A stretch of 51,154 nt of DNA from Escherichia phage damhaus, in the sequence record NC_049827.1, one strand, 5' to 3'. Shown piece by piece: positions 24,128-45,550 of the stretch (within the stretch, counting starts at the first letter, position 1; the number at the start of each line of letters is the position of its first letter). Position numbers and translations under genes: made by a program. A model generated the notes under the pieces. That model did no database searches and was not told the DNA's origin. It saw nothing but the letters and a program-made list of their open reading frames with translations.

Positions 24128-24533
24128 TAAAGGCGATTATCTGGAGTTTTACGAAAGAGATCCGACAGATACGCTAAAAGAGGAATCTCACCAGATCGGG
24201 GCGTTTCAATGGTTAACTTATGCTCATCCTGAATTACTGGCATGGCATACGAAAAACGAGGGCGACAAGGGGATCGCCACCGCAATGATGGATCAGCAAG
24301 CTGGGCTTGTTAAGGGCGTAAGTGATTTTATCATCCTGATTGGATTAAAAGGTCGTTACCCGTTCGCGGCAATTGAGATGAAGCGCGTCAATAAGTCCGG
24401 CAAGGGTAAGGCTTCACCAGTCAGCAAGGACCAAAAAGCCTTCTTGCGTCGTGTGCGTGAGCTTGGCGGATTCGCTGCCGTAACATACGGATATAAGCAA
24501 TTCATGATCGCTGTAGAATACATGATGAAATAG
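24114..24533 (+). CDS. VRR-NUC-like PD-(D/E)xK nuclease
   Basis: 139 aa with D...E-x-K pattern (GVSDFIIL...AIEMK). Confidence 0.55.
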   Translation: MAMTDKGDYLEFYERDPTDTLKEESHQIGAFQWLTYAHPELLAWHTKNEGDKGIATAMMDQQAGLVKGVSDFIILIGLKGRYPFAAIEMKRVNKSGKGKASPVSKDQKAFLRRVRELGGFAAVTYGYKQFMIAVEYMMK

Positions 24534-24549
24534 CACTTTTTGTTAAAAC
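24528..24549 (+). promoter_or_regulatory. conserved intergenic box copy
   Basis: AAATAGCACTTTTTGTTAAAAC; its TAG is the stop of the upstream gene; followed by a GC hairpin and CATAAT. Confidence 0.7.
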
Positions 24550-24607
24550 AGGCGCGAAGGATTGCGCCATAATAACGCCAGTTCAACAAGCAACAGGTAA
24601 TTAAGAA

Positions 24608-25309
24608 ATGAGTAAAGAAACTGAAGTGACATTTGAACAAATAGAACGCGAAACATTCATTGGCAATGCTCTTGCTACTGGTGGTCATTACCAGGCTGTT
24701 AAACCAAATCAATATTTCAAAGTGACTGGCAACCGCTATAACGGCAGCAATACGCCGGACATTGTGCGCGATTTGTGGTCTACTCCGTATGAGCTTGTCG
24801 CATGGATGGAAAGTGAATACGGTGATTATGACATCGACGCGGCTGCAAGCAAAGAAAATGCTGTATGTGAAAAATTCTACAGCAAGGAAACAAATTGCTT
24901 AAAGCGTTGGTGGGGTAGTAACAAGCATATATGGCTTAATCCACCGTACAGCAATATTACGCCATTTGTTAAGAAGGCGATTGAGCAAATGGAGCACAAC
25001 AACCAGATCGACATGCTGTTACCTTGCGACACATCAACAGGATGGTTTTATGAAGCGCAACAGCGCGCAGCGGAAATCATCTGGATCACTGGCGAAGTTT
25101 ACCAGGAAGACGGAACAGAATATTCCCGCACAGGACGCCTTGCGTTTACCTCTGCTCTTACAGGTAAACCAGTGCAGGGCAACAACAAAGGAAGCGTTAT
25201 TTTCATCATGCGCGAACTTAAAGAAGGTGAGCAGCAGAAAACGCGATACGTTAAAATCAGCGACATTTGCCCTTCGGTGGCAGACCGTCGCGCACGGAAA
25301 CGGAGCTAA
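24608..25309 (+). CDS. dam: DNA N6-adenine methyltransferase (T1 Dam-like)
   Basis: 233 aa with DAAAS and NPPYS motifs. Confidence 0.75.
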   Translation: MSKETEVTFEQIERETFIGNALATGGHYQAVKPNQYFKVTGNRYNGSNTPDIVRDLWSTPYELVAWMESEYGDYDIDAAASKENAVCEKFYSKETNCLKRWWGSNKHIWLNPPYSNITPFVKKAIEQMEHNNQIDMLLPCDTSTGWFYEAQQRAAEIIWITGEVYQEDGTEYSRTGRLAFTSALTGKPVQGNNKGSVIFIMRELKEGEQQKTRYVKISDICPSVADRRARKRS

Positions 25310-25313
25310 AACC

Positions 25314-25553
25314 ATGCAGAAAGAAAGAAGCGTTTATTTAAATGAAACTGGAGAGTGGTTGTTATTTCGCGCTATGGTTTGCGAGGCGCTTGATAAAAAC
25401 GATTTCATAAAGCCGCTATTAGGTTGCGACCCGTGGGAGTTTACAAGCGCGCTTGATATGAGCTTTGAGGAAACAAGAAAACTACCGCTTGAAAAATGGC
25501 ATGAGCAGATCGGTAAAGACTTGCAAGAGTTTTACGAATCCGCGTCAAAATAG
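25314..25553 (+). CDS. hypothetical protein
   Basis: 79 aa from an internal Met of track ORF 24966-25553; GGAG RBS. Confidence 0.5.
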   Translation: MQKERSVYLNETGEWLLFRAMVCEALDKNDFIKPLLGCDPWEFTSALDMSFEETRKLPLEKWHEQIGKDLQEFYESASK

Positions 25554-25569
25554 CACTTTTTGTTAAAAC
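25548..25569 (+). promoter_or_regulatory. conserved intergenic box copy
   Basis: AAATAGCACTTTTTGTTAAAAC overlapping the TAG stop; followed by GCCCGG...CGGGC hairpin and CATAAT. Confidence 0.7.
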
Positions 25570-25625
25570 GCCCGGCCTTGTGTCGGGCATAATTATTTCA
25601 TCAAAACGAACAAGAGGAAAACAAA

Positions 25626-25805
25626 ATGGTTGTTTACGATCCACGCGCTTTTAAAATTGCTCAAGAAGTTTCACGCGAATCTGTTGCTGGCGGTTCGGTT
25701 AACGGCTATCAGTTTGATTGGTCGGCAGCAATGACCTTGCTTAAGGTTGCATATGGTCACGCGCCAATTGAAACAGCGGAGGAATATTATAAGCATGAAG
25801 GTTGA
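25626..25805 (+). CDS. hypothetical small protein (59 aa)
   Basis: Below the ORF-track size cutoff; ATG preceded by the conserved leader ...AAGAGGAAAACAAA. Confidence 0.4.
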   Translation: MVVYDPRAFKIAQEVSRESVAGGSVNGYQFDWSAAMTLLKVAYGHAPIETAEEYYKHEG

Positions 25806-26037
25806 GCAAGGTAGGCAGGCTGTATGGGATCACGCAAAGGAATGCGGGATCGCAGAAGACATATCCAGGATAGCGAAATATTTTGATATTGCTGACATAA
25901 GCATTATCAGCGGCGACAAAATGACATTTCTCAATGAACGCCCGCGCAAGATGCATCGCGTCCCAGCAATACCAACAAAGATTGATTTCAAAGAGGCTAT
26001 GGCGAAAATTCGCGAGCCGCGCAAATACTACAAATGA
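25795..26037 (+). CDS. hypothetical protein
   Basis: Start at Met17 of track ORF with GGAGG RBS. Confidence 0.45.
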   Translation: MKVEQGRQAVWDHAKECGIAEDISRIAKYFDIADISIISGDKMTFLNERPRKMHRVPAIPTKIDFKEAMAKIREPRKYYK

Positions 26038-26133
26038 GGATTATTATCATGTGGCGTTTGTTACTTTTGCCCTTACCTGTTATGATGGCGATCTCTATTG
26101 TATACGTTGTCATAATGAGATAAGGAGAATTTT

Positions 26134-27267
26134 TTGATGAAGCAAATCAAAATCACAGATGAACAATTTATCAATGAGCGCAAGCAGGGAAAGACATATA
26201 AGCAGATCGCTAATGAGTATGGCATGAACGTTCGAAGCATTGAGCGACGTGCGGCACGATTAGCAAAGCAAGGTAAAGTTACAACCATCGGATCGCCTGG
26301 TTTTGGTGTTACTGGAGAATCAAAGCTAATTGATAAAGATGGCAATGTTGTTATGACATGGATTAAGACAAGCAAGGACCGCGAACAGTTAGAAGCATTA
26401 ATGCAGGCCGCTATGGATGCATTTAGCGAAGAAGTTCCGCGACTTGATCCACAGCCAGAATCACAAAAGGATTATAGCGAGACGTTATCACTGTATCCGA
26501 TATTTGACATGCACTTGGGCGCAATGGCGCATAAGCATGAATGCGGCGAGAATTGGGATACAGCAACAGCAGAGCGCGTAATGAATAATTTCATTGATTA
26601 TTCCATCCAGTGCGCGCCGGATAGTGAAAAGGCTGTTTTGCTGATTGGTGGTGATATGCTTCACAGCGACGGACTGGAAGCGGTAACTCCTGCAAGCGGT
26701 CACGTATTAGATCAAGATAGTCGATATGCAAAACTTGTTTATGTTGCTATCCGGTCGGTTCGTCGAGCAATTACAAAGCTGTTATCAAAACACAAAAACG
26801 TCGAGATCCAAATCATTGAAGGCAACCACGACCAAAGCGGTATGATCTGGTTGCGCGCAGCAATGGCGGCAGCATATGAGAATGAGCCGCGAGTGCATGT
26901 TGATGTGTCTCCGCGAGTAGTTCATCACACACAATATGGCAAAACGTTCCTGGCATACCATCACGGGCATACTATCCGCAAACCTGAAACATTGCTCATG
27001 ATGTGCGCGGCAGACTGGCGCGAAGATTTCGGCAATTCAAAAATGATGTATGCTCACGTAGGGCACTGGCATCATCAGACAGTAACTGAAACAAGCCTTG
27101 GCATTGTTGAAGTGCATAGCACTATGGCGGCAAAAGATGCATATGCGGCGCGCGGTGGATGGCGTTCTCGTCGCCGTGCGGCTGTTATTGTTTACGATAA
27201 AGAATACGGCGAAGTCGGGCGATTTATGCATTATCCAGAAATGGCTGATCGAACTTTTAATTATTAA
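26134..27267 (+). CDS. HTH-domain protein fused to calcineurin-like metallophosphoesterase domain
   Basis: N-terminal HTH (TYKQIANEYGMNVRSIERR); phosphoesterase signatures D-x-H, GGDMLHSD, GNHD, GHWHH. Confidence 0.55.
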   Translation: MMKQIKITDEQFINERKQGKTYKQIANEYGMNVRSIERRAARLAKQGKVTTIGSPGFGVTGESKLIDKDGNVVMTWIKTSKDREQLEALMQAAMDAFSEEVPRLDPQPESQKDYSETLSLYPIFDMHLGAMAHKHECGENWDTATAERVMNNFIDYSIQCAPDSEKAVLLIGGDMLHSDGLEAVTPASGHVLDQDSRYAKLVYVAIRSVRRAITKLLSKHKNVEIQIIEGNHDQSGMIWLRAAMAAAYENEPRVHVDVSPRVVHHTQYGKTFLAYHHGHTIRKPETLLMMCAADWREDFGNSKMMYAHVGHWHHQTVTETSLGIVEVHSTMAAKDAYAARGGWRSRRRAAVIVYDKEYGEVGRFMHYPEMADRTFNY

Positions 27268-27295
27268 AATATCAATATAAATCATCAATTTAATT

Positions 27296-27326
27296 GGGCG
27301 AGGCATTTTGCTTTGCCCTTTTTTTA
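27296..27326 (+). terminator. terminator-like hairpin
   Basis: imperfect GC hairpin followed by TTTTTTT. Confidence 0.4.
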
Positions 27327-27398
27327 TTCCTTTTTGTGCGTTCAATGGTTAGGATACAATCAATTAATTGTTGACTTTTATTTACAGGAGATCTAATC

Positions 27399-27614
27399 AT
27401 GAAAGATTTTTTAAACGCTGCAACTTCCGGCACTGGCGGCGCGTCAATCACTGGCGCGGTAACTGGTCAAACAACGATTGCAATAGCCAGCTTCGTTTTG
27501 ATGGCTGCATTTGGTATGTGGGGCGCTTATCTTCGTTGGCGTGATAGTAAGGCGCTACGTGACGCGCTTGAATGCGGTGATATTAAGAAGGCTATTGAAA
27601 TCAGGGGTAAATAA
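27399..27614 (+). CDS. holin (probable pinholin)
   Basis: 71 aa, single hydrophobic segment, charged C-terminus, immediately upstream of endolysin. Confidence 0.6.
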
Positions 27615-28102
27615 TGAGCATAAAACAAAGAGTGACCGCTGCGGCTTTTGGCGTTGCTCTTGCTCTTACTTCTCCATTACTGGAGGAAATAGAAGGAGTA
27701 AAATATAAGCCGTACAAAGATATTGCTGGAATATGGACGGTTTGCGCCGGAATAACTGGACCTGACGTAATACCAGGTAAGACGTACACACAGAGAGAGT
27801 GCGATGCGCTACTGGCAAAGCATATCAAGATCGCAAAGGATGAAGTTGATAAGCGCGTGAAGGTTGATATTCCTGATACAATGCGCGCGGCAATGTATTC
27901 ATTCACGTATAATGCTGGCACTGGTGCTTTTAGAAATTCAACCATGCTTAAGCTGATTAATAAAGGCCGTTACATGGAAGCGTGCGATCAGTTATGGCGA
28001 TGGACCAAATACACCAATCCAAAAACAGGAAAGAAAGAAACGTCTAAAGGACTGCGCAACCGCCGCGCCGTGGAATTTAAATATTGCATTAAGGATCTGT
28101 AA
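27614..28102 (+). CDS. SAR endolysin (T4-lysozyme-like muramidase)
   Basis: Gly/Ala-rich N-terminal signal-anchor-like segment; E-x8-D-x5-T catalytic spacing. Confidence 0.75.
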
Positions 28103-28104
28103 TT

Positions 28105-28503
28105 ATGAGAAAGTTATCAGTAATCGCGATCGCTGTTATCTTGTCTGGATGTTCAAGCGTTACGCCACTGACCGGATTGATAGGAAGCAAGCCTGAGATA
28201 ACAGCACAGGCAGGAGCGGAGAACGTAAAACAGACCGTCGGACTGACAGCAAAACAGGACGCCAGCACAAAACAGGATACGACAATTAAAGAGTCGAAAG
28301 TTGACACTGTTGATACTTCAAACAAAAAGGAGATCAAAACGTCAACCATTCAGGCCAATACCATCAAGGCTGATAAAATCCAGGTCGTGCAGGGTGAGCA
28401 AGGCAAGTGGTACGATCCTATAATATATTGCGCGGCAATTTTTAGTGGTCTTTTGTCAATGCTTTACTTTTCCTGCCGAAAGGGCAACAAAAAGGAGGCT
28501 TAA
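28105..28503 (+). CDS. unimolecular spanin (u-spanin, T1 gp11-like)
   Basis: 132 aa with N-terminal lipoprotein signal (LSGC) and C-terminal transmembrane helix. Confidence 0.7.
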   Translation: MRKLSVIAIAVILSGCSSVTPLTGLIGSKPEITAQAGAENVKQTVGLTAKQDASTKQDTTIKESKVDTVDTSNKKEIKTSTIQANTIKADKIQVVQGEQGKWYDPIIYCAAIFSGLLSMLYFSCRKGNKKEA

Positions 28504-28518
28504 CGCCTCCTTTGTTTT
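28492..28518 (+). terminator. rho-independent terminator after lysis cassette
   Basis: GGAGGC-TTAAC-GCCTCC hairpin followed by TTTGTTTT. Confidence 0.6.
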
Positions 28519-28732
28519 ATGCATCAGCCCACATATAACTTTCGTTTGTGAGTTTTGCATATTCGCGAACTTCAAATTCGCACTTATCACCGTACATCTC
28601 CGCGACTTTCTTCTCGTTCGCTACCGCTGATTCCTCGGTCCATCCATCAGCTTTGCTGTAAAGAGTTGGAATCTCACTGCTAGTACCGTTGGAGTGATTA
28701 TAAACGCGAACTACTAAAAATTTGTTAGCCAT
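28517..28732 (-). CDS. hypothetical protein
   Basis: 71-aa ORF preceded by box, hairpin and conserved leader. Confidence 0.5.
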   Translation of the reverse strand: MANKFLVVRVYNHSNGTSSEIPTLYSKADGWTEESAVANEKKVAEMYGDKCEFEVREYAKLTNESYMWADA

Positions 28733-28793
28733 GATGTTTTCCTTCTGGTCGTTTCGTCTCGATGAAACAAATATACCCGATACGAGATCGGGT

Positions 28794-28815
28794 GTTTTAA
28801 CAAAAAGTGCTATTC
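28794..28815 (-). promoter_or_regulatory. conserved intergenic box copy
   Basis: minus strand reads AAATAGCACTTTTTGTTAAAAC overlapping the TAG stop of gene 28810-29004. Confidence 0.7.
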
Positions 28816-29004
28816 AATACGCTTTACAGTAACCAACAAAACTCCGTCCTCATCACACAAATTATGCTCTGATATATCAAACGCTCGCATGTCAGAATGA
28901 ATGAGCGTTAACATTGCGTGCATGAAGTCGTCATGTGAGATTGAACTTACGGCGCAGAACTTCAATATTTTGTCTATTAGCATTTGACGTAAACAATTCT
29001 TCAT
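28810..29004 (-). CDS. hypothetical protein (start uncertain)
   Basis: 64-aa ORF; overlaps the upstream ORF by 74 nt in another frame, so the start may be an internal Met. Confidence 0.35.
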   Translation of the reverse strand: MKNCLRQMLIDKILKFCAVSSISHDDFMHAMLTLIHSDMRAFDISEHNLCDEDGVLLVTVKRIE

Positions 29005-29323: not shown

Positions 29324-29325
29324 AA

Positions 29326-30909: not shown

Positions 30910-30960
30910 TGATGATAACTCCTTTTTGATGCGGCAATAATACCGCACCAATGCTACCCG

Positions 30961-30982
30961 CATTTAACAAAAAATGCTATTT
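30961..30982 (-). promoter_or_regulatory. conserved intergenic box copy (one mismatch)
   Basis: minus strand AAATAGCATTTTTTGTTAAA overlapping the TAG stop of gene 30977-31198; followed by hairpin containing TATTAT. Confidence 0.6.
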
Positions 30983-31198
30983 GATCCGCTCTATGCTAAC
31001 TAAGATTTTTTCTGGTTCCTTTGCGCTGTGGCAATGCGCGGTTACGGAATCAGCAAAATCAAAATAAAGTGATTTGTTGTAAGAAAAACCAATCAGCCAT
31101 CCAACCATCGTTTTCTTTATTGGCCTGACTATATCGCCAGGCTTGAATGTTTTTGTTGCTGAACAAGTAACCTTATAGCGATATTCAGTCTTGATCAC
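30977..31198 (-). CDS. hypothetical protein
   Basis: 73-aa ORF with GTG start overlapping the upstream stop (GTGA). Confidence 0.45.
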   Translation of the reverse strand: MIKTEYRYKVTCSATKTFKPGDIVRPIKKTMVGWLIGFSYNKSLYFDFADSVTAHCHSAKEPEKILVSIERIK

Positions 31199-31581: not shown

Positions 31582-31636
31582 CGTTTATTTCTCCTTTCGT
31601 TTCGGTGAAGTGATTATGCCAGGATTTTACACCTGG

Positions 31637-31658
31637 CTTTTAACAAAAAGTGCTATTT
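31637..31658 (-). promoter_or_regulatory. conserved intergenic box copy
   Basis: minus strand AAATAGCACTTTTTGTTAAAA overlapping the TAG stop of the methyltransferase gene; followed by GCCAGG...CCTGGC hairpin and CATAAT. Confidence 0.7.
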
Positions 31659-32363
31659 TGCGTTAGCTTCAAAGACTGCGCGTGCAAAACCGCGCGGGGT
31701 GAGAGAGCGGATCATCTTTGTGCGAGATGATTTTCCGCCAGTTTTGGCCCAGCCTGGATTATCTTTATCGTCCTCTTTCGGCAGTATTAAAGCGCGCGGA
31801 GGAATAACAAAGCCGTTGCCAGTCCAAAGACATGTTTTCTTAAAGTAGCGATCCCGCGCAGGAATAATATCAGGGAAGTCGGGATGTTTATCATCTTCCG
31901 GCAGATAGCCAGCGTAATCGCACGGATGGAACGTATAATCAGGCTTACGCCATAACGTTGACAGCTTGCCTACAGGATTCTCTATCATGTAAGGAACACC
32001 GAAATAATCAGCGATATGCGCCGCTATTTTGCAAGTGTCGGCGGCTTCATCCTGGAATTTTGGATTATCAATTCTCTTTTTAGCCCAATGGCGAGATCCG
32101 CTATTTGCAAGGTCAGTGCATGGAGGGAACGCCATAATAAAATCAGGCTTACCCCAATTTTCAAGTTTTGCGGTATATTTGAATAGATCATCAATCCACA
32201 CATTAACGTAAAAAATATTATCGTGGATTATGCGCACTGAGTGGTAATCACCGTGATCTGCATCATCGTAATTAAAGCAAATGCATTTATATCCAGCATT
32301 AGCCCAATCTTTAACGGCTTTACCAGATCCATCAAACAAAGAGAAAATTAAACCCTTATACAT
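31653..32363 (-). CDS. putative DNA (cytosine-5)-methyltransferase-like protein (short, orphan)
   Basis: 236 aa with FDGSG (motif I-like), PPC (motif IV-like PC dipeptide) and IENP (ENV-like); GAGGTGA RBS. Confidence 0.5.
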   Translation of the reverse strand: MYKGLIFSLFDGSGKAVKDWANAGYKCICFNYDDADHGDYHSVRIIHDNIFYVNVWIDDLFKYTAKLENWGKPDFIMAFPPCTDLANSGSRHWAKKRIDNPKFQDEAADTCKIAAHIADYFGVPYMIENPVGKLSTLWRKPDYTFHPCDYAGYLPEDDKHPDFPDIIPARDRYFKKTCLWTGNGFVIPPRALILPKEDDKDNPGWAKTGGKSSRTKMIRSLTPRGFARAVFEANAK

Positions 32364-32970: not shown

Positions 32971-33022
32971 TATGCGATCCTCATTATATTTGGTGTGGTA
33001 ACTATACAAGGTTTGATAAATA

Positions 33023-33043
33023 TTGTTTAGCAATTCGTGCTAT
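33023..33043 (-). promoter_or_regulatory. conserved intergenic box, variant copy
   Basis: minus strand ATAGCACGAATTGCTAAACAA, like the variant at 39967; followed by TATAGT and TATAAT. Confidence 0.5.
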
Positions 33044-33144
33044 CAGTTGAAATAGCTATGGCGCTTTGCTCGCTTGCCGTCTCCGCCATAATGATCATTT
33101 GCAACAGCTACCATCCAGGCATTATGGAGTATTATTAGCTTCAT

Positions 33145-33859: not shown

Positions 33860-33914
33860 TTTTAAATCCTCGTTCGTTGTCGATGCGCATAATATACCAA
33901 TCAGAGGCGCATCG

Positions 33915-33936
33915 GTTTTAACAAAAAGTGCTATTT
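33915..33936 (-). promoter_or_regulatory. conserved intergenic box copy
   Basis: minus strand AAATAGCACTTTTTGTTAAAAC directly after the TAA stop; followed by hairpin containing TATATTAT. Confidence 0.7.
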
Positions 33937-34729: not shown

Positions 34730-34790
34730 TGCTATCTCCTGATTGGTATCTCGTTTCGATGAGATAACTATACCAGGTTATTCCGATCTT

Positions 34791-34812
34791 GTTTTAACAA
34801 AAAGTGCTATTT
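34791..34812 (-). promoter_or_regulatory. conserved intergenic box copy at head of minus-strand block
   Basis: minus strand AAATAGCACTTTTTGTTAAAAC followed by TATAGT and the CATCGAAACGAGAT leader. Confidence 0.7.
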
Positions 34813-35877: not shown

Positions 35878-36126
35878 ATGAGCAAACTTACTCTTGATGA
35901 ACTGATGGAAAAAATTGATGAAGTGGGCTTTAACAAACTGGTTGATTTCCACTTGACCGCATGTGAAATCACCGCGCAGGAGTTTAGCGAAATGCTATCT
36001 GATGCGAGCGAGATTTACACAAGCCTATGCGGAAGAGAAATCAAAGTCATTGAAATTGAAATGCCTGGAGATCCGGTATTTGCAAGGCTTGTGGCTGCAT
36101 TCGATGAGGAGAATGTTGGACTCTGA
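35878..36126 (+). CDS. hypothetical acidic protein
   Basis: Start at Met29 of track ORF (GAGGA RBS); 82 aa. Confidence 0.5.
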   Translation: MSKLTLDELMEKIDEVGFNKLVDFHLTACEITAQEFSEMLSDASEIYTSLCGREIKVIEIEMPGDPVFARLVAAFDEENVGL

Positions 36127-36130: not shown

Positions 36131-36152
36131 AAATAGCACTTTTTGTTAAAAC
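36131..36152 (+). promoter_or_regulatory. conserved intergenic box copy
   Basis: AAATAGCACTTTTTGTTAAAAC followed by GCCAGGC...GCCTGG hairpin, AATAAT and conserved leader. Confidence 0.7.
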
Positions 36153-36209
36153 GCCAGGCGCAAAGCCTGGAATAATAGCCTCATCGAAACGAGATTGAGG
36201 AAAACAAAA

Positions 36210-36410: not shown

Positions 36411-36596
36411 ATGAAAACGAAATTAGTCCATAAATCAGAAATCAAGATCGGCGATACTGTAATTCACAACGGCGAGCTTAGAACGGTTGGCAAAGAGTCA
36501 ATAATCCACGATGAATTTATGGGGATCTTGTTGTTCGGTGACTCTTATCGTCTTGGTTATAAAATGGTTGAGCTTGTGGAAGATGTAAAATTCTAA
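36411..36596 (+). CDS. hypothetical protein
   Basis: 61-aa ORF with AGGTGA RBS. Confidence 0.5.
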   Translation: MKTKLVHKSEIKIGDTVIHNGELRTVGKESIIHDEFMGILLFGDSYRLGYKMVELVEDVKF

Positions 36597-36617
36597 ATAG
36601 CACTTTTTGTTAAAAAC
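36595..36617 (+). promoter_or_regulatory. conserved intergenic box copy
   Basis: AAATAGCACTTTTTGTTAAAAAC overlapping the TAA stop; followed by CATAAT. Confidence 0.7.
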
Positions 36618-36696
36618 GCCAATCTGAAAACCTGGCATAATGCATCACATAGGGCGGCACGGCGTCGCCCAGTTAAACCAATCAGGAGAAAGTACC

Positions 36697-37026: not shown

Positions 37027-37605
37027 GTGGATAATATCAAGTATCCGATTGTTTTTCATTGTGGCGGTTCAACAATCAGGTTCACATCGCGCGACAATGG
37101 CGTTTATAGCGATGGTCAGAAATCAGAGTTGAAAGTTGATTTCTTTGTTAATGGTCACAACAAATTCAATCCGCACAATGAAACTGGCAATGTGTACTAC
37201 GTGGAAGACATTACAAAACACTTGTTTGGGGAAACACCATTCGGCGGCGGGAAGACGTCAATTCAACAAATCATTGGCGAGGAGATCCACAAGGCAGCCG
37301 TTGAAATGAAAGCGCCTGGAGGCTGTAAGATTGATAAAATCGACCTTATCACCATTCGCTCAAAGATTGGCGGAGTTGAATACGAGGGCAAAATTGAAAA
37401 AATGCCGCTCGGCGCTTCAATTATCGGCATCAAAGACGACAACGGCGATTGGCATGATGTTTCTTTCCCGATCAAGCGTATCGAAGTTCTCGACGACTTG
37501 ATTTGCCTCCTGGCGCATCATGGCAGCTATAAGAACAATCCGTTCTCCGCAGAGCTAAACATCAAGCGCGGAACGCTGGTTAAGTGGAAGGTTAAGTGTA
37601 AATAG
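37027..37605 (+). CDS. hypothetical protein
   Basis: 192-aa ORF; only possible start is GTG without a clear SD; ends inside a box copy. Confidence 0.45.
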   Translation: MDNIKYPIVFHCGGSTIRFTSRDNGVYSDGQKSELKVDFFVNGHNKFNPHNETGNVYYVEDITKHLFGETPFGGGKTSIQQIIGEEIHKAAVEMKAPGGCKIDKIDLITIRSKIGGVEYEGKIEKMPLGASIIGIKDDNGDWHDVSFPIKRIEVLDDLICLLAHHGSYKNNPFSAELNIKRGTLVKWKVKCK

Positions 37606-37621
37606 CACTAATTGTTAAAAC
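37600..37621 (+). promoter_or_regulatory. conserved intergenic box copy (variant)
   Basis: AAATAGCACTAATTGTTAAAAC overlapping the TAG stop; TATAAT about 17 nt downstream. Confidence 0.65.
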
Positions 37622-37674
37622 TCAAATGTGGGGCCAAGTATAATGGCCTCACTTTCAACGAAGGAGATAAAACG

Positions 37675-38078: not shown

Positions 38079-38614
38079 AAAAATACGAATTTGAACTTTG
38101 GGGAAGCAAATACCATTTTTCCACTAGCAAGCCGATTGTTATTGTTGACCTTGACGGCACGTTATCAGATGGAACGCACCGCTTGCACCTGCTGCCGACA
38201 GAAGATTTGCACCTTACAGAAAGCTGGTCTGAGTTCAACAAAGCGGCTGTTGGCGATTCGCCGATTAAGAGCACGGTTTCAGTGGTTAACGGATTGTGGA
38301 TGTCAGGATTTGCCATCGTTATCCTGACAGGGCGCAGCGATGAGGTGATGGCTGACACCTGCGACTGGTTAAATTATAACGGCATCAAGTACGACGCGTT
38401 AATCATGCGCCGAAAGGAAGATAACCGAAAAGACACGATCATCAAAGAGGAAGTCTTGCGAGCTATCGGACTGGAAAACATTGTGTGCGCTTTTGATGAT
38501 TCGCCGAACGTGGTTAAGCACTTCCGCAGCCTGGGAATCACAACCTATCAGGTCACGGAATACGAAAAGCCACATAATCACATCCAATCGCACGGCGTGG
38601 ATGAATTAAAATAG
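38075..38614 (+). CDS. HAD-superfamily phosphatase (polynucleotide 3'-phosphatase-like)
   Basis: DLDGTL (DxDxT) motif near the N-terminus; start at Met5 overlapping the upstream stop. Confidence 0.6.
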   Translation: MKKYEFELWGSKYHFSTSKPIVIVDLDGTLSDGTHRLHLLPTEDLHLTESWSEFNKAAVGDSPIKSTVSVVNGLWMSGFAIVILTGRSDEVMADTCDWLNYNGIKYDALIMRRKEDNRKDTIIKEEVLRAIGLENIVCAFDDSPNVVKHFRSLGITTYQVTEYEKPHNHIQSHGVDELK

Positions 38615-38630
38615 CACTTTTTGCAAAAAC
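38609..38630 (+). promoter_or_regulatory. conserved intergenic box copy (variant)
   Basis: AAATAGCACTTTTTGCAAAAAC overlapping the TAG stop; followed by hairpin and TATAGT. Confidence 0.65.
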
Positions 38631-38685
38631 AGATTGTCGGGCTTGCGGTATAGTAAGCCCATCGACAACGAAAAAGGAAAACATC

Positions 38686-38985: not shown

Positions 38986-39001
38986 TAGAGGAGAAGAACA
39001 A

Positions 39002-39187: not shown

Positions 39188-39381
39188 TTCTTGCTATAGC
39201 GCATTCATGCAGTGCGCTATGTTGAGATAACAACATGAGATCATGAAGATGCGAAACTTCGAAAAAATCGTATCCAAAAAGAAGCGATACAGCTACCACG
39301 AGCACCAAGAGATGAATCAACGCTATCGCAATAAGCGCCAGCGCCCAGGTAAACATTCAAGCCGATATGGAGACAACTAAT

Positions 39382-39972
39382 ATGAAAAGAGACATTATCA
39401 TCCTTAACGGACCGCCAGGGGTTGGCAAGGATACGCTTGCGGCATACTTAACGGGCCATCGTTACGCAGCCGTTAAAGCGTCGTTTAAACAGCCTATGTT
39501 TGATATTGCGTTTTCCATGCTTGGCGTTTACCGATATGACGAGTTCATTGATCTGTATAACGACCGCGAGCAGAAAGAAAAGCCTCAAGCAATCTTGCAA
39601 GGCAAGTCGCCTCGCCAGTTCATGATCTGGATTAGCGAAGAAGTTATGAAGCCAGCTTTTGGCGAGCAATATTTCGGAAATCGCATGGTTGAGCAAGTAC
39701 ACGAGATGTACAGAGATTTAGCTGTTGTAATTAGTGATGGCGGATTCCCTGAAGAAATCAAACCGCTCGTTAAGGCAGGCCATGAAGTTCACATTTGCCG
39801 ACTGCATCGCGAAGGCTTCACGTTTGATGGCGATTCACGAAACTATATTGACCTGAGCGGATACCATCACCGCGTAAAACATTACGACTTCACAATGATT
39901 GATGGCGATCAAGAAAAGACTGTTGACGAGATCATCAAAACGGTCCAGTGGAAACACATTAAGATCAAATAG
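39382..39972 (+). CDS. P-loop nucleotide kinase (dNMP kinase-like)
   Basis: GPPGVGKDT Walker A near the N-terminus, a GKDT-type motif as I recall it from phage dNMP kinases; start at Met6. Confidence 0.55.
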   Translation: MKRDIIILNGPPGVGKDTLAAYLTGHRYAAVKASFKQPMFDIAFSMLGVYRYDEFIDLYNDREQKEKPQAILQGKSPRQFMIWISEEVMKPAFGEQYFGNRMVEQVHEMYRDLAVVISDGGFPEEIKPLVKAGHEVHICRLHREGFTFDGDSRNYIDLSGYHHRVKHYDFTMIDGDQEKTVDEIIKTVQWKHIKIK

Positions 39973-39988
39973 CACGAATTGCTAAAAG
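39967..39988 (+). promoter_or_regulatory. conserved intergenic box copy (variant)
   Basis: AAATAGCACGAATTGCTAAAAG overlapping the TAG stop; hairpin then TATAAT about 18 nt downstream. Confidence 0.6.
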
Positions 39989-40042
39989 CGGGGCGCAATG
40001 CCTCGCTATAATGCAAACACCAATCAACGAGAGGAAATCATC

Positions 40043-40444: not shown

Positions 40445-40543
40445 CAACAACGCAACCAATCCAAAGCCGCCATTTGATTTTCATGAAATCATGATTGTGT
40501 TATTCTTGATTCTCTTAGTTATCTATTCAGTGAGGGCCGCACT

Positions 40544-40807: not shown

Positions 40808-40983
40808 AAAGAGTAATTATCACTTTTATTGCCCTTATCGCTGGTTGCTACTTGGCTTATGGATATGGCGGCATTGTTGAGTCAATCGGCGGATTGATTA
40901 TCTTCATGGCTGGCGGATATGCTGGCTATGGTGACGGATTCAAAGACGGTAAGCGATACATGCTGACCGGAAAAAAGAAGTAA
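40804..40983 (+). CDS. small membrane protein
   Basis: 59 aa, Gly/Tyr-rich hydrophobic; ATGA overlap with upstream gene. Confidence 0.45.
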   Translation: MKRVIITFIALIAGCYLAYGYGGIVESIGGLIIFMAGGYAGYGDGFKDGKRYMLTGKKK

Positions 40984-41025
40984 TGTTAACCGCGCCGCTT
41001 AGGTGGCGCCAAAAGGAGGAAACAA

Positions 41026-41313
41026 ATGGCTAAAAGCTATCGTAAAATGTTGATTAACGCATTCGAAAAGGCAGCGCTTGAGCGTGGTTGGAATGACTCA
41101 TTTCACACAGCAAACTGTATCCGCCGTTACGGATTCAAGAATTGCCGCTCATGGGCGCGTGAAATGGCTTCATGGTATGATCTTGATGCGCATTACCTTG
41201 ATATGGATTGCGCCCTGGTTGAAATGATTGAACAGGCAGCATTAGAGGATCGACCATTAACGCAATCTGATTTTGACGATTTTGTGCGCGATGAAATTTA
41301 TTATATGAGCTAA
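41026..41313 (+). CDS. hypothetical protein
   Basis: 95-aa ORF with AAAGGAGG RBS. Confidence 0.55.
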   Translation: MAKSYRKMLINAFEKAALERGWNDSFHTANCIRRYGFKNCRSWAREMASWYDLDAHYLDMDCALVEMIEQAALEDRPLTQSDFDDFVRDEIYYMS

Positions 41314-41332
41314 TAGCACTTTTTGTTAAAAC
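41312..41332 (+). promoter_or_regulatory. conserved intergenic box copy
   Basis: AATAGCACTTTTTGTTAAAAC directly after the TAA stop. Confidence 0.65.
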
Positions 41333-41388
41333 TTCCGCGAGGGCATTTGTTAAAGTGTCCTCATTGAAGCGAAACAGAGGAAAGCGCA

Positions 41389-41613
41389 ATGAAAATTCGA
41401 ATTACCAATATTGAATCAACTAGCCCGTTTGATACTGACGAATTAAGCCTTGAGCAGTGTGGGATCGAGGTTGGCGATGTGTTCGAAGTTACCGGACAAT
41501 ATCGCGATGGGACTTTGAGCATTCAAGCGCCACGAGATACCGATGATGGTTGCATCAAGGCTGGCGATGAATTGAGCGTTAACGAAGGTGAATATGAGGT
41601 TGTAGAAGAATGA
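41389..41613 (+). CDS. small highly acidic protein
   Basis: 74 aa, D/E-rich; first of three coupled acidic ORFs. Confidence 0.55.
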   Translation: MKIRITNIESTSPFDTDELSLEQCGIEVGDVFEVTGQYRDGTLSIQAPRDTDDGCIKAGDELSVNEGEYEVVEE

Positions 41614-41873
41614 TCACGATTAACCTGTCAGAGCAGCAAGCGCGCATTATGTTAGCGGCCTTTGGCTGGCGAGATGATGACGGCATCCAGGCAACTGTTA
41701 AAATTCCTGAGCCAGTGGCGCGTGAAGTTTTCAGCCAGCTAGAACACGCATTTGATCCTGCTGGGACTGAGCAAGCGGAAACTGCCGCATGGTTCGGTGA
41801 GAACGGATACCGCGATCAGCAGATTGAAGAATGGAAGCGCAAAAACGAGACTGCGGAGGATGCAGGATTATGA
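41610..41873 (+). CDS. small acidic protein
   Basis: 87 aa; ATGA overlap with upstream gene. Confidence 0.55.
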   Translation: MITINLSEQQARIMLAAFGWRDDDGIQATVKIPEPVAREVFSQLEHAFDPAGTEQAETAAWFGENGYRDQQIEEWKRKNETAEDAGL

Positions 41874-42184
41874 TTTACATTCACTACTACCAGATCGGGA
41901 CAAACGAAAACAAGCAGGAGCGCAGAGCAATTTGTGACACGCTCGACGATGCGAAAGCACAGCAACGCGTTTTGGGTGGTGTAATTCAGGCTTTTGAGCC
42001 AGTGGAAGATATAGAGCACCGAGAGCATTTGAAAGAGATTGTTGTTGATGAAATTTCATCACTAATCGACGACATGACAAATCACGGGCCTGGTTCTCCG
42101 TGGGAAGAAGCCGGATCGACGGAGTGGGATTGCGCTAAAGTTGCAACGCTTAACAACTTTCGTGAGTTGCTCGACGATTTTTAA
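41870..42184 (+). CDS. small acidic protein
   Basis: Start at Met14 overlapping the upstream stop; 104 aa, D/E-rich. Confidence 0.5.
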   Translation: MIYIHYYQIGTNENKQERRAICDTLDDAKAQQRVLGGVIQAFEPVEDIEHREHLKEIVVDEISSLIDDMTNHGPGSPWEEAGSTEWDCAKVATLNNFRELLDDF

Positions 42185-42193
42185 TTAAAAATG

Positions 42194-42240
42194 AATGCCT
42201 CATACAGCGAACAGGACGCATTTTGACGAGGCATTTTTTA
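42194..42240 (+). terminator. rho-independent terminator
   Basis: AATGCCTC ... GAGGCATT stem with long loop followed by TTTTTT. Confidence 0.55.
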
Positions 42241-42254
42241 GGTAAGGTGATTCA

Positions 42255-42383
42255 ATGGATAACTACATAAAACCGTCGCAGTGGTGCGCACAGAAGCAAG
42301 AGGAAGCATTAGAACGCGGCGACACTGAAACGGCAATGCACTATTTCGAAATGTACAACTTGTGGAAGGGTAGAGGTCTGTAA
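42255..42383 (+). CDS. putative 42-aa protein
   Basis: Below track cutoff; AAGGTGA RBS; stop overlaps downstream start (TAATG). Confidence 0.4.
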   Translation: MDNYIKPSQWCAQKQEEALERGDTETAMHYFEMYNLWKGRGL

Positions 42384-42613
42384 TGTTTGGAATGAACGAG
42401 GCACAATTCAACGCTGCAAAGCGCCAGGCTAAGAAGTGCGGCGAGGCAATGAAAGCGGATGTTGAAAAGCGCGGAAAGTATGTTGATGAAGTTATGAAGG
42501 GCATTATTGCCGAACATTATCAGCCAGTTGCGCCAATGCTGACAATTACCCAATTCATCTGGTTGTGTGGTTATCTTCGTGGTAGATGGGGAAACGCATT
42601 TGACCGCGAATGA
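42383..42613 (+). CDS. hypothetical protein
   Basis: 76-aa ORF coupled to the upstream small ORF. Confidence 0.5.
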   Translation: MFGMNEAQFNAAKRQAKKCGEAMKADVEKRGKYVDEVMKGIIAEHYQPVAPMLTITQFIWLCGYLRGRWGNAFDRE

Positions 42614-42759
42614 TTGACAACGCTTTCCTGATTGGTTAGCATCTTTGGTGTTTACATAAGAGCGGCGTTAGTGCCGAACGGGTGGCGCGGTTGCCACGCA
42701 GCAACGGCGATATGCAGGTTTTTACCGTAAGACGTATCGCCTTTTTTATAGGTGAATAT

Positions 42760-42993
42760 ATGGAAAAGTACAAATTAACTTTCATGTTTAATAGTATGGT
42801 GATGAATCCATTAAATGGTTACGCTTGCAATAGCTTTTCTGTTACCGTGGATGAGGATGGAATTGATGATGATGGTAAATTTATTCAAATAGGTGATTAC
42901 CTTTATCCTATTCACAATATCAATTGCATCAAACGCGAGATTGTTAAAGATGAAGTACAAAGTAAAGCTGACGATCAGGCGAATGGGGCGTAA
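42760..42993 (+). CDS. hypothetical protein
   Basis: Start at Met27 of track ORF with AGGTGA RBS; 77 aa. Confidence 0.5.
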   Translation: MEKYKLTFMFNSMVMNPLNGYACNSFSVTVDEDGIDDDGKFIQIGDYLYPIHNINCIKREIVKDEVQSKADDQANGA

Positions 42994-43131
42994 TTGCTCG
43001 TCATGTAGGCAGGATTTTGAATGCGAGATTTCAGCGCAAAATCCTGTTGACGCGATTCAATGTGCTAAAGTTATATCAGGTGCAGATCCAGAGACGCATC
43101 AATTTTCAATCAATTTTGTAAGGGAAGTATC

Positions 43132-43365
43132 ATGTTGAACTTAATTTCTGCTTTTGTTATTGGTTTTGTTTTTGCTGTAATTATTCTGTTTGTCGCATCG
43201 GAAAAGATTTGCAAATTTCTTGCTAAGAACGGGAAGTTTGCAAGCGTGACATGGAATAACAAGATGCATCGATGGGATGTTCGCGGTCACTATCTGACGA
43301 TTGGTAGCAAAATCCATCAGCACCTGAAGAATCAAGAAGATGAAAAAGTAAAATACAAGTATTGA
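43132..43365 (+). CDS. small membrane protein
   Basis: 77 aa with N-terminal transmembrane helix; AGGGAAG RBS. Confidence 0.55.
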   Translation: MLNLISAFVIGFVFAVIILFVASEKICKFLAKNGKFASVTWNNKMHRWDVRGHYLTIGSKIHQHLKNQEDEKVKYKY

Positions 43366-43371
43366 CCAACT

Positions 43372-43396
43372 ACCCGCCAAATGGCGGGTTTTTTAT
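43372..43396 (+). terminator. rho-independent terminator
   Basis: CCCGCC-AAAT-GGCGGG hairpin followed by TTTTTTATT. Confidence 0.7.
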
Positions 43397-43445
43397 TGTT
43401 TGCAATTTGTCTATAATGAGGCTTTGTTATAAAGGAGGGCGCATT

Positions 43446-43967
43446 ATGGCTAAAAACGTTGAGCCAGCAGTAAAGGCTTGCAATTTTAAAAAACTATATA
43501 ATAAGCAATATGGCGATATTGCAAAAATGACAAAGGCGCACAAGTACACGCCGGAACAGGTGTTTGATCTGGCTGTACGTTACTTTACGTGGGCCGAGGA
43601 AAACCATATACAGGCTGCGGAAACTGCATCCTTTCAGGGTGATGTATACGAAAGCAAGGTTCACAAGCCGCGCGTGTTCACCTTAAATGGATTCCGCTTA
43701 TTCGCTGGCCTTTCTGCTTCCGTGCTTGAAAAATGGCGACGCGAGCCAGGATTCAGCGATGTTATGGACTTTATCGACGGCGTTGTTTACGAGCAAAAAT
43801 TCCAGCTTGCTGCAAACAATATTGTTAACGCCGGATTCATTGGTAAAGAGATCGGCATTGAAAAGCCAGCCACCGTTACCATTGAGAATAACACAAGCGC
43901 CAGCGTTGACGCTGTAACGGCGGAGGAAGTCAAAGAGGCGGTAATTGACATTCTGGAGAAGATATAA
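43446..43967 (+). CDS. terS: terminase small subunit
   Basis: 173 aa from Met29 of track ORF (AAAGGAGGG RBS), immediately upstream of and overlapping the large terminase gene. Confidence 0.6.
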   Translation: MAKNVEPAVKACNFKKLYNKQYGDIAKMTKAHKYTPEQVFDLAVRYFTWAEENHIQAAETASFQGDVYESKVHKPRVFTLNGFRLFAGLSASVLEKWRREPGFSDVMDFIDGVVYEQKFQLAANNIVNAGFIGKEIGIEKPATVTIENNTSASVDAVTAEEVKEAVIDILEKI

Positions 43968-45535
43968 TGCTGATTTGGGAAGACTTAACAGCGGCGCAGA
44001 AACGCGCCGTTAAGGAAATGAGCGAATATTCATTCGAAAAGATGATCCGCATCTGGTTTCAATTATTGCAAGGTCAGAAATTCTTAGGAAACTGGCATTT
44101 CAGCTACCTATGCAGCGAAGTTGAAAAAATCATCAAAGGCGAGTCACAGAATGTAATTTTCAACATAACGCCAGGCAGCGGTAAAACAGAGATATTCTCG
44201 ATCCATATGTCACCTTATGCGTCATTGAAAAGTAAGAAGGTGCGAAATCTTAATCTTTCGTTTAGTGATGGCCTTGTCCAGCAGAATAGCAACCGAATTA
44301 AGGAGATTATTGGTTCTCCAGAATGGCAGGAGCTATGGCCTGGAAAGCTGGCAAAGGCGAGCGCAAAGGATTTGATTGTAACCGATGGCGGCAAGGTTAA
44401 GTTACAAGTTAACTCGCGTTCTATCGGTGGCCAGGTTACTGGTCTGCGTGGTGGCTACATGGACGATGGATTTACTGGTATGCTGGTTCTTGACGATCCA
44501 GACAAGCCGGATGACATGCTTTCTAAGGTAAAGCGCGAAGCCGGACACATGCGCCTAAAGAACACAGTGCGATCGCGTCGAATGAAGGACACAACGCCAA
44601 TCGTAATGGTCCAGCAACGTCTACACGTCAATGATTCAACATGGTTCATGACAAACGGAGGTATGGGCGGCATCCAGTTTAAGGTTGTTAGCATTCCGGC
44701 GCTAGTTACTAAGGAATATCGCGAAACGCTTCCTGATTGGTTAAAGCCTGAGTTTGATCGCGATGTTTTGTCCAGTAAGCCAGTGATGATTGATGGAGTT
44801 GCTCATTATTCATTCTGGCCTGCTAAGGAAAGCGCGGAGGAATTGCTTGCGCTTCGAAATGCTGATCCGTACACGTTCGCTAGTCAGTATCAGCAACAGC
44901 CTGTTGCGCTTGGCGGTAACGTGTTTAAAACAGAGTGGTTTCAGTATTACGGCAGCAGCGAAAAATGCACGCTACCAAAACCGGATCGCTTTGAATATAC
45001 ATTTATCACGGTTGATACCGCACAGAAAACAGGGGAGCTTAACGACTATTCCGTGATCTGTTATTGGGGGATGTATAAAGATCGTGTTTACTTCATTGAT
45101 GGTGTTCGCGGAAAATGGGAAGCACCGGACCTTGAGACGAATTTTGTTGCATTCGTTAATCAGTGCTGGAAGCGCAATAAAGAATGCGGAACGTTGAGAA
45201 GGATTCATGTTGAAGATAAATCGTCTGGCACTGGTTTGATTCAGAGTGCAGCGAAAAAAATCATGATCAAGATCAATCCCGTTCAGCGAGATAAAGATAA
45301 GGTTACGCGAGCAATGGACGCAGCGCCAGTAATGCGCGCCGGACGCGTAGCACTTCCAGAATCGCATCCTATGCTGGCTGAGATACTCGCTGAAGTTGCG
45401 GCGTTTACATTCGATGATTCGCATCCTCATGATGATATTGTTGATAACATCATTGATGCGGTTAACATTGAAATGAACATGGCAGATGATCCGGTAGGAA
45501 GAATGAAAAAATTGGCAGGTTTGCGGAACAAATAG
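43967..45535 (+). CDS. terL: terminase large subunit
   Basis: 522 aa; Walker A (PGSGKTE); size and position upstream of portal. Confidence 0.8.
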   Translation: MLIWEDLTAAQKRAVKEMSEYSFEKMIRIWFQLLQGQKFLGNWHFSYLCSEVEKIIKGESQNVIFNITPGSGKTEIFSIHMSPYASLKSKKVRNLNLSFSDGLVQQNSNRIKEIIGSPEWQELWPGKLAKASAKDLIVTDGGKVKLQVNSRSIGGQVTGLRGGYMDDGFTGMLVLDDPDKPDDMLSKVKREAGHMRLKNTVRSRRMKDTTPIVMVQQRLHVNDSTWFMTNGGMGGIQFKVVSIPALVTKEYRETLPDWLKPEFDRDVLSSKPVMIDGVAHYSFWPAKESAEELLALRNADPYTFASQYQQQPVALGGNVFKTEWFQYYGSSEKCTLPKPDRFEYTFITVDTAQKTGELNDYSVICYWGMYKDRVYFIDGVRGKWEAPDLETNFVAFVNQCWKRNKECGTLRRIHVEDKSSGTGLIQSAAKKIMIKINPVQRDKDKVTRAMDAAPVMRAGRVALPESHPMLAEILAEVAAFTFDDSHPHDDIVDNIIDAVNIEMNMADDPVGRMKKLAGLRNK

Positions 45536-45550
45536 CACGAATCGACAAAC
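45530..45550 (+). promoter_or_regulatory. conserved intergenic box, degenerate copy
   Basis: AAATAGCACGAATCGACAAAC overlapping the TAG stop of terL; TATATAAT and a canonical terminator follow. Confidence 0.5.

Follow-up and report, generated by a model that had tools for sequence, protein, structure and literature searches.

Why do unrelated genes end on one and the same base triplet of a repeated sequence? The question is raised by the complete 51,154-base genome of Escherichia phage damhaus (NC_049827.1; hereafter the window), a T1-like siphovirus of the Drexlerviridae, genus Hanrivervirus, according to the taxonomy lines of the matching records. A box containing ATAGCAC recurs between its genes, followed by a hairpin and a leader, and a preliminary description of the window reported that the TAG of this box is frequently the in-frame stop codon of the upstream gene. 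Gene ends were said to be phased to the repeat, and the box-hairpin-leader unit was proposed to mark cassette boundaries at which short homologous sequences mediate gene gain, loss and shuffling. We found the phasing of gene ends to be real, statistically robust and family-wide. The explanation that we favour, and consider moderately probable, is that gene ends have been packed against a discrete promoter-hairpin-leader module, after which the original stop codon decays.

The element itself is already known. A 21-nt intergenic direct repeat, aaATAGCACnnnTTGnTAAAA, has been described in phage TLS, and its occurrence in T1, Rtp and Rogue1 noted (German, Kropinski, Misra et al. 2024, PMC11447400). 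In the section of that paper devoted to it, the repeat is oriented with transcription, lies ~76 nt upstream of the start codon and is present in many copies per genome; it is assigned no function and is listed as an open question, with stoperators, enhancer sites and UP elements mentioned. The window box is this published repeat, with the same consensus (composition over 484 + 69 distinct copies), the same orientation and a T1-like host. The TLS section treats the repeat as intergenic, and mentions neither the TAG as the stop codon of the upstream gene nor a fixed 22-nt distance to a −10-like hexamer, nor classes of hairpin. Our analysis adds that about half of the upstream gene families use the TAG as their working stop codon, that a fixed distance separates the box from a −10-like hexamer, the interval holding an RNA-type hairpin, and that the units come and go as discrete modules directly after stop codons. 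In place of "function unknown", specific hypotheses can now be put forward for the repeat: that it belongs to a promoter of the activator type, that it supplies a back-up stop and that its hairpin is an attenuator.

Gene ends are phased to the box

Box positions are numbered A1 A2 A3 T4 A5 G6 C7 A8 C9 onward, the TAG occupying positions 4–6. Shigella phage pSf-1 and Escherichia phages herni and aaroes, all of the genus Hanrivervirus, share ~94% identity with the window, which matches 485 phage records; gene ends were taken over from the aaroes and pSf-1 annotations, the coding sequences (CDSs) of which were matched by blastp to the open reading frames (ORFs) of the window. ATAGCAC occurs 17 times in the window, and a profile search added the variants ATAGCAT (30984−, 22005+ and 49807−) and AAAGCAC (21533−). 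There are about 19 box copies, each co-directional with the downstream gene, the start codon of which lies ~72–80 nt further on; the units, from box to start codon, are 75–102 nt long (Table 1).

Thirteen of these boxes have a co-directional upstream gene. Nine of the genes end on the TAG, one on a TAA-TAG tandem, two on a TAA abutting the box and one on a TGA 6 nt upstream, so that the TAG frame holds 10/13 gene ends (binomial test against 1/3, p = 0.0016). The nine TAG stops previously reported, in the plus-strand ORFs ending at 24533, 25553, 37605, 38614, 39972 and 45535 and the minus-strand ORFs ending at 28810, 30977 and 31653, were confirmed at these coordinates. Three further genes had been reported to end on a TAA immediately before ATAGCAC. 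The TAA does abut ATAGCAC at 36596 (+) and 33935 (−), but the TAA ending at 41313 shares one base with it (TAATAGCAC) and belongs to an in-frame TAA-TAG tandem, in the TAG frame. The genes stopping on the box include those for the large terminase, polynucleotide kinase and a methyltransferase, which are homologous to annotated CDSs. Among the early genes, about half terminate in UAG with a C as the next base.

A family-wide search, with a pattern that did not require the TAG, yielded 659 box copies from ~70 related genomes, and a scan of IMG/VR with one box variant yielded 120 pieces of T1-like genomes. Upstream ORFs were present for 549 of the 659 copies, and these ORFs fell into 126 unrelated gene families, each of which was counted once, by its modal stop position. 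The geometry of the units was determined from 484 distinct units, and 69 further distinct boxes had no upstream ORF of at least 30 codons.

The modal stop was the TAG itself (position 4) in 57 families and a tandem stop-TAG (position 1) in 11, and it lay at position 0 in 15 families, position 17 in 14, position 10 in three and position 3 in one. Stops at box positions 0–19 accounted for 102/126 families (81%), and the frame counts of 74 (TAG frame), 32 and 20 departed from thirds (p = 4.6e-9). The same phasing was found in phage T1, which belongs to a different subfamily, at non-orthologous genes; the stop-in-box arrangement is kept in relatives carrying the box.

A TAG-containing repeat lying near gene ends would sometimes be in frame by chance, or through an artefact of ORF calling. 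The ORF ending at 28810 is indeed weakly supported (it corresponds to a 37-aa CDS of pSf-1 but lacks an annotation in aaroes), and AAATAGCAC with at most one mismatch is not significantly over-represented when considered alone (26 occurrences versus 17.5 expected). However, this explanation is refuted by the frame statistics, both in the window and among the families. The concentration of stops at positions 0–19, the nhmmer E-values of the full units (as low as 1e-13) and the homology of the genes to annotated CDSs also argue against it, and we regard its probability as negligible.

The TAG belongs to the DNA element

In the 69 distinct boxes without an upstream ORF, T4, A5 and G6 were conserved at 100%, 97% and 97%, respectively, whereas T4 was conserved at only 90% in boxes with an upstream ORF. 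The TAG was kept in 12/12 true boxes of strictly divergent regions, and in the window, copies 34810(−), 13215(−) and 22005(+) keep ATAGCA without an upstream gene. Since the TAG is invariant where there is no gene upstream, it belongs to the constrained DNA element; it is an invariant base triplet of this element rather than a stop codon under selection. Genes would end in the box because the constrained element offers stop codons in two reading frames.

Anatomy of the unit

The units are made up of the box, a 22-nt spacer, a −10-like hexamer (yATAaT), the conserved leader CATCGAAACGA and a Shine-Dalgarno sequence. The recognition element reads ATAGCAC-N3-TTG-N-TAAAA and can also be read as an imperfect palindrome, TAGCA-N5-TGYTA, the inverted repeat being perfect in the variant GAATTGCTA. 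The hexamer (CATAAT, TATAGT, TATTAT or similar) begins at box position 41 in 427/484 units (88%), and its distance from TTGyTA is rigid, at 22 nt, including in units without a hairpin. With the centre of the palindrome at position 11 and the −10 starting at position 41, the box would be centred at about −42 from the transcription start implied by the −10.

In class II activator-dependent promoters, the CRP and FNR sites are centred at −41.5; lambda cI at PRM is a further example. The T1-type unit resembles these promoters in having a palindrome-like site ~42 bp upstream of the presumed start, no usable −35 at 17 bp and a good −10. It differs from them in that its site is imperfectly symmetric and runs into an A-tract, the start being deduced from the −10 alone and the activator being putative. 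This geometry suggests that the units may function as promoters, with the box read in the manner of a class II activator site.

Several other promoter types were considered. A standard sigma-70 promoter with TTGyTA as the −35 is ruled out by the 22-nt spacer, and TTAAAA with a 19-nt spacer is a weak possibility as a −35. A sigma-54 promoter was rejected on comparing TAGCAC-N5-TTGC with TGGCAC-N5-TTGC, since the box lacks the GG and its spacing falls short by 2 nt. The T4 MotA box is TGCTTTA, and TTGCTAAA resembles it, but it lies ~8 nt too far from the −10 for a MotA-box promoter. A consensus scan of the window detected fewer sigma-70-like sites than in shuffled sequences, and only two of these sites overlapped a unit; between 24000 and 43900, there were 25 consensus-like sites versus 40.3 ± 6.8 in shuffled sequence. 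In the genome of TLS, its authors reported finding only three sigma-70-like promoters (PMC11447400).

An UP element, suggested by the TLS authors, is a less likely reading of the box, the invariant positions of which containing G or C (TAGCAC and TTG) argue for sequence-specific recognition. The sole obvious phage-encoded candidate for a box-binding factor, as judged from its sequence, is a conserved helix-turn-helix (HTH) protein (Table 1), the Pfam matches of which are below the curated cut-offs. The gene for this putative regulator (21519–21992, minus strand) itself ends, when read by eye from the sequence, on the TAA at positions 17–19 (frame 2) of a box variant without the TAG.

Positions 19–65 of the units have a mean folding energy of −12.5 kcal/mol, versus −5.7 kcal/mol for shuffled sequences, and the hairpin is weaker (−8.5 kcal/mol) in units without an upstream ORF (p = 2e-8). 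The hairpin is usually present and rich in GC; its stem lies in the spacer in 180 units and encloses the −10 in 264. The hairpin sequences are wholly different between units, even at orthologous junctions. GNRA loops make up 49/125 tetraloops, versus ~3% expected, and UUCG loops are also present; the GNRA loops point to an RNA role of the hairpin.

In the annotation of T1, the hairpins following the box are labelled as rho-independent terminators. An intrinsic terminator consists of a hairpin and a U-tract, and most unit hairpins are not of this kind: at least five T residues in the next 8 nt follow only ~10% of them. They were therefore rejected as canonical terminators for most units. In the window, a terminator scan flagged two unit hairpins, with canonical terminators elsewhere, at 27296, 43372 and 28491. 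On the opposite strand, at 24551–24568 and in other units, a hairpin is followed by GTTTTAAC, the complement of box sequence GTTAAAAC; one such antisense site was flagged by the terminator scan, and the units could terminate antisense transcription.

The RNA-type loops raise the possibility that the box itself acts as RNA, in a 3′-untranslated or intercistronic element that includes the hairpin and begins at the stop codon. The box is always on the sense strand and directly after gene ends, and the labels given to the T1 hairpins by the annotators would be consistent with such a role. However, intact boxes head divergent operons, for which no upstream sense transcript is expected, the 22-nt spacing to the −10-like hexamer is rigid even where there is no hairpin, and no Rfam family matched at gathering score anywhere in the window. 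We consider it very improbable that the box is an RNA element.

The position of the hairpin also bears on whether the TAG is selected as a stop codon, such that a ribosome halting ~17 nt before the stem would allow the hairpin to fold, or would couple the end of translation to events at the promoter or leader downstream. In these hairpins, the 5′ arm begins at median position 23, just past the footprint deduced for a ribosome stalled on the TAG, the hairpins are stronger in units with an upstream ORF, and the frame-2 stop (position 17) is used a quarter as often as the TAG. The bias towards AAA and GAA as the last codon, described below, could be a termination-context effect. On the other hand, the TAG is at least equally conserved in boxes without an upstream ORF, and single gene families tolerate stops at positions 0, 1, 3 and 10. 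In the 14 families with a stop at position 17, the hairpin is not significantly displaced (median start 26 versus 23; p = 0.07 by copy and 0.22 by family), and the idea that it shifts downstream with the ribosome footprint was rejected. Selection of the TAG as a stop codon thus seems improbable.

Proposed stop decay and the origin of the phase

A possible path to the present gene ends is provided by a micro-ORF (Table 1) lying in the apparent 100-nt gap upstream of the box at 33043. The end of this ORF varies among relatives, which have TGA-TAG, TTA-TAG, TAA/ATAG(CAC), or a TGA without the unit. In JLBYU26, the 62-nt unit is absent through a clean indel: the sequence reads ...AAT TGA/GGAT, where the window has ...AAC TGA/TAGCAC...ATAA/TGAGGAT. 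Units join directly onto a gene's own stop codon, and the TAG is therefore in frame by construction. The TTA-TAG state would correspond to an original stop that has decayed and, judging from the sequences compared, this one family appears to display the whole evolutionary path of stop states.

The model that we favour is as follows. The box would make up the 5′ portion of a distinct module between genes, ~75 nt long. Its stop triplets, TAG at positions 4–6 and TAA at positions 17–19, lie in two frames, and its purine-A flank puts a TAA or TGA one mutation away, so that any gene packed against the box would end within it or at its 5′ edge. Where a unit is placed directly after a gene's own TAA or TGA, the TAG would be in frame and serve as a back-up, leaving the original stop free to decay to AAA, GAA or CGA, whereby one residue would be added and the TAG would become the stop. 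The excess of the TAG frame would be due to the way in which units join genes. In RNA that reads through from the upstream gene, the hairpin would be an attenuator or a 3′ stabiliser, and rarely a canonical terminator.

Two features of the family-wide data are consistent with this model. The last sense codon before the TAG is AAA in 35, GAA in 20, CGA in five and CAA in three of 68 families; all four are first-base neighbours of TAA or TGA, and AAA, expected for 17% of NNA codons, is in clear excess (p = 5e-11). Among the stops that do not touch the box, 15 families are in the frame without a box stop, versus three and five in the other two. This concentration of off-box stops in the third frame is the pattern expected if the loss of a stop is harmless only with the box as a back-up.

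Several points weigh against this model. A purine is found at position 2 in 83% of the boxes without an upstream ORF too, and the AAA/GAA bias could result from a preference of the box or from translation-termination context, rather than from decayed stops. The copies in the wider data set are phylogenetically related, and gene families may have moved together with their own box; the class without an upstream ORF may also hide micro-ORFs like the 23-aa one. As regards the promoter component, the 22-nt gap rules out a standard sigma-70 −35/−10 promoter, the box-binding protein is a candidate only, and no regulator homologue was detected in KP15-type phages (40 of 841 matching records sampled), though these carry the unit. 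Transcription-start, transcriptome or 3′-end data for T1-like phages were not found in the literature searched, which, apart from the TLS and PeSL papers, yielded no relevant work on the box or on promoters of the Drexlerviridae either.

Units as mosaic boundaries

The phasing has also been attributed to recombination: short homologous units would shuffle genes, and only cassettes with their stop in the shared box would be portable. Breakpoints were mapped by comparing the window with 18 relatives or loci, each at least 80% identical to it; relatives were fetched from GenBank because most IMG/VR loci were only 60–75% identical to the window. In comparisons with eight relatives, 17/86 mosaic breakpoint clusters fell within units, which make up 3.5% of the genome. 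In the 22–46 kb region, 71 breakpoint clusters were distributed over unit junctions (24), other gene junctions (21) and gene interiors (26).

Relative to ordinary gene junctions, the enrichment was marginal. In this region, 11/15 unit junctions contained breakpoints, versus 17/38 other junctions (p = 0.057), and the density was 10.8 per kb in unit and other junctions alike, versus 1.3 per kb inside genes. Within units, breakpoints were located at the 5′ edge of the box (9/20) and at the start-codon end (8/20), and in six units they fell exactly at box positions 1–3. The unit thus stands as an island of conservation amid variable genes.

Three indels (33935/33856, 36177/36595 and 33007/33854) are unit-to-unit events, each of which left one hybrid unit, with 22–80 nt shared. 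At the unit 33860..33936, aaroes and pSf-1 carry a 504-nt two-gene cassette that is flanked there by two units, and in aaroes an extra gene has been inserted exactly at the edge of the box of unit 38609..38685 and again ends AAA TAG. At the unit 28733..28815, the downstream gene is deleted or replaced in relatives, with a breakpoint at box position 8. Together with the absence of the 62-nt unit from JLBYU26, an architecture that fits subclasses of the PeSL elements discussed below, and the presence of T1-type units between non-T1-like genes of the unrelated T4-like phage KP15, these observations favour the part of the earlier proposal in which units are boundaries for shuffling.

However, most of the clean indels involve no unit. 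Many are ~500-nt insertions at box-less junctions, and homing (HNH) endonuclease genes are annotated at several insertion junctions in BEC3 and pSf-1. A crossover anywhere in the 75-nt unit would need no stop inside it, and the TAG is conserved where there is no upstream gene. Thus, the units are mosaic boundaries and occasionally recombination substrates, but without a clear preference over other gene boundaries, and the gene ends do not owe their phase to recombination. We consider it unlikely that the phase originated in the exchange of cassettes. In the packing model, units are conserved islands between variable genes, from which mosaic boundaries and occasional homologous recombination between units would follow; the mosaicism would then be a secondary matter, a consequence of the arrangement and not the cause of the phasing.

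The insertions of ~490–550 nt in relatives are located at 16244/16257, 24073/24120, 26120/26144, 28942/28991, 29324/29326, 31197/31252 and 45519/45531. The last of these coincides exactly with the 5′ edge of the box that follows the large terminase gene.

Comparison with known systems

The closest analogues of the unit are the PeSL/PmSL elements, found in phages of the T4 type (Arbiol et al. 2010, PMC2839356; Comeau et al. 2014, PMC4122927). Both PeSL and T1-type units are composite intergenic cassettes beginning at the upstream stop codon, both have a stem-loop that either falls between −35 and −10 or overlaps the −10, and both are repeated between small accessory genes, with indels linked to recombination between copies in PeSL and possibly so in the T1-type unit. 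However, PeSL elements contain a near-consensus sigma-70 promoter with N17 spacing and no long conserved box, whereas the T1-type unit has a 21-nt box lying 22 nt from the −10; it does not conform to the PeSL definition of a promoter because the gap between the −35-like sequence and the −10 is 22 nt rather than 17. The T1-type unit also differs in that the stop is at a fixed base inside the box and in that the enrichment of breakpoints over other junctions is marginal. Promoter and terminator activities have been measured for PeSL, to which mini-circle formation is also ascribed, whereas the T1-type unit is known here from its sequence. Our results extend the idea of promoter-hairpin cassettes at mosaic boundaries beyond the T4-like phages, but also temper it, as the recombination signal is modest.

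Promoter-coupled bacterial terminators (Fletcher et al. 2026, bioRxiv 10.64898/2026.08.19.745784) likewise have a −10 immediately downstream of a stem-loop, and in both systems a transcription unit has its termination and structure signals superimposed on the promoter of the unit that follows. In those terminators, the T-tract and stem DNA serve as parts of the promoter (−35), whereas T1-type hairpins mostly lack a T-tract and have a separate upstream box. The stoperators of mycobacteriophage L5, an analogy drawn by the authors in the TLS section on the repeat, are also numerous short sites lying between genes and oriented along transcription. They are, however, repressor sites of a temperate phage and have no −10 at a fixed distance, whereas the T1-like phages are virulent.

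Units outside the T1-like phages

The sole non-T1 match in the IMG/VR scan was Klebsiella phage KP15 (GU295964), a T4-like Slopekvirus. Two complete T1-type units lie between small, non-T1-like genes (9,730–10,450, minus strand, with the units at 10.0–10.4 kb), each with a box, a hairpin, a −10 and the CATCGAAACGA leader, and there is a third leader nearby. The stops are again in the box: the TAG ends KP15_14, and a TAA-TAG ends KP15_13B. These units are annotated as "putative middle promoter (MEME)", and the region is common to 117 phage records.

The T1-type regulator matches 841 records. Forty of these, sampled across the ranking, were genomes of ~44–53 kb plus one 22.7-kb partial record, and no genome of Slopekvirus size was found among the 40. 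The KP15 copies would either have their box read by a host factor or be imported relics. We tentatively raise the possibility, which we hold to be rather doubtful, that the unit is a portable "stop-promoter-leader" module representing a phage-specific promoter class. In such a class, a box at −42 would be read by a dedicated factor (the Drexlerviridae HTH regulator or a host protein), and the module would insert after stop codons and move from T1-like siphoviruses to T4-like Slopekviruses, bringing its own back-up stop.

In the ~800 genomes of Drexlerviridae, the box could be used to fix gene ends and to find micro-ORFs. In the engineering of therapy-relevant phages, a change to the box would alter a stop codon and a regulatory site together.

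Features of the window

The units, box variants and associated genes of the window are listed in Table 1.

Table 1. Boxes, units and associated genes in the window (coordinates as positions of NC_049827.1).
Feature	Coordinates	Strand	Description
Box variant TGAAAGCACTAATTGCTAAAAAC	21464..21537	−	Before primase gene; TAG lost
HTH protein, 157 aa	21519..21992	−	Cro/YdaS-like; phrog_2856 "transcriptional regulator", E = 3e-78
Box variant ATAGCATTTTTTGTTAAAC	22003..22082	+	Divergent region before helicase gene; no co-directional upstream gene; TAG kept
Unit	24528..24607	+	Box AAATAGCACTTTTTGTTAAAAC, hairpin in spacer, CATAAT, leader; Dam methylase gene starts with ATG at 24608
Stop in unit 24528..24607	24531..24533	+	TAG; ends gene 24114–24533
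Unit	25548..25625	+	TAG 25551–25553 ends 79-aa gene; hairpin GCCCGGCCTTGTGTCGGGC, then directly ATAATT
Unit	36131..36209	+	Gene 35878–36126 ends with TGA 6 nt before ATAGCAC (frame 0); one end of deletion 36177/36595 in relatives
Unit	36595..36696	+	Long leader (102 nt); TAA 36594–36596 abuts ATAGCAC; breakpoint hot spot
Unit	37600..37674	+	TAG 37603–37605 ends gene 37027–37605; hairpin GGCC...GGCC encloses TATAAT
Unit	38609..38685	+	TAG 38612–38614 ends polynucleotide kinase gene
Unit	39967..40042	+	Palindromic box variant ATAGCACGAATTGCTAAAA; TAG 39970–39972 ends gene 39382–39972
Unit	41311..41388	+	TAA 41311–41313 and TAG 41314–41316, in-frame tandem stop; gene 41026–41313
Degenerate box ATAGCACGAATCGACAAACC	45530..45603	+	Followed by canonical terminator; TAG 45533–45535 ends large terminase gene
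Unit before cor-like gene	13142..13217	−	Divergent region; no upstream gene; no clear hairpin
Unit	28733..28815	−	TAG 28812–28810 ends small ORF 28810–29004
Unit (ATAGCAT variant)	30910..30984	−	Before DNA helicase gene; TAG 30979–30977 ends gene 30977–31198
Unit	31582..31658	−	TAG 31655–31653 ends DNA methyltransferase gene 31653–32363
Unit without GC-rich hairpin	32971..33045	−	Upstream 23-aa micro-ORF ends TGA-TAG on box
Micro-ORF, 23 aa MVAVANDHYGGDGKRAKRHSYFN	33043..33114	−	Unannotated; conserved; differences in relatives mostly synonymous
Unit	33860..33936	−	TAA 33937–33935 abuts ATAGCAC
First unit of leftward operon	34730..34812	−	No upstream gene; weak hairpin; ATAGCAC intact

The degenerate box at 45532 has GAATCGACAAACC where TTTTTGTTAAAAC is expected. 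At the corresponding terminase-portal junction of T1 (10515–10590), there is no box, versus a degenerate box and a canonical terminator in the window, and this comparison of the two sequences suggests that the unit at this junction may be either decaying or nascent. In the unit at 36597, the unusually long leader holds an additional GC-rich inverted repeat, gggcggcacggcgtcgccc, after the −10 and before the Shine-Dalgarno sequence (~36650–36672), and has a 945-nt insertion in one relative.

The GenBank records MG065636–MG065687, "Campylobacter phage" sequences (UNVERIFIED, host C. jejuni), are Hanriverviruses ~90% identical to the window genome, and their host label is probably wrong.

A further full copy of the box, ATAGCACTTTTTGTTAAAAG, is present at 2309–2396 on the minus strand, antisense to the major tail protein gene and beside the canonical major-tail terminator. 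It lies directly against the ribosome-binding site of the plus-strand gene that begins at 2408, and could be an antisense promoter or an operator.

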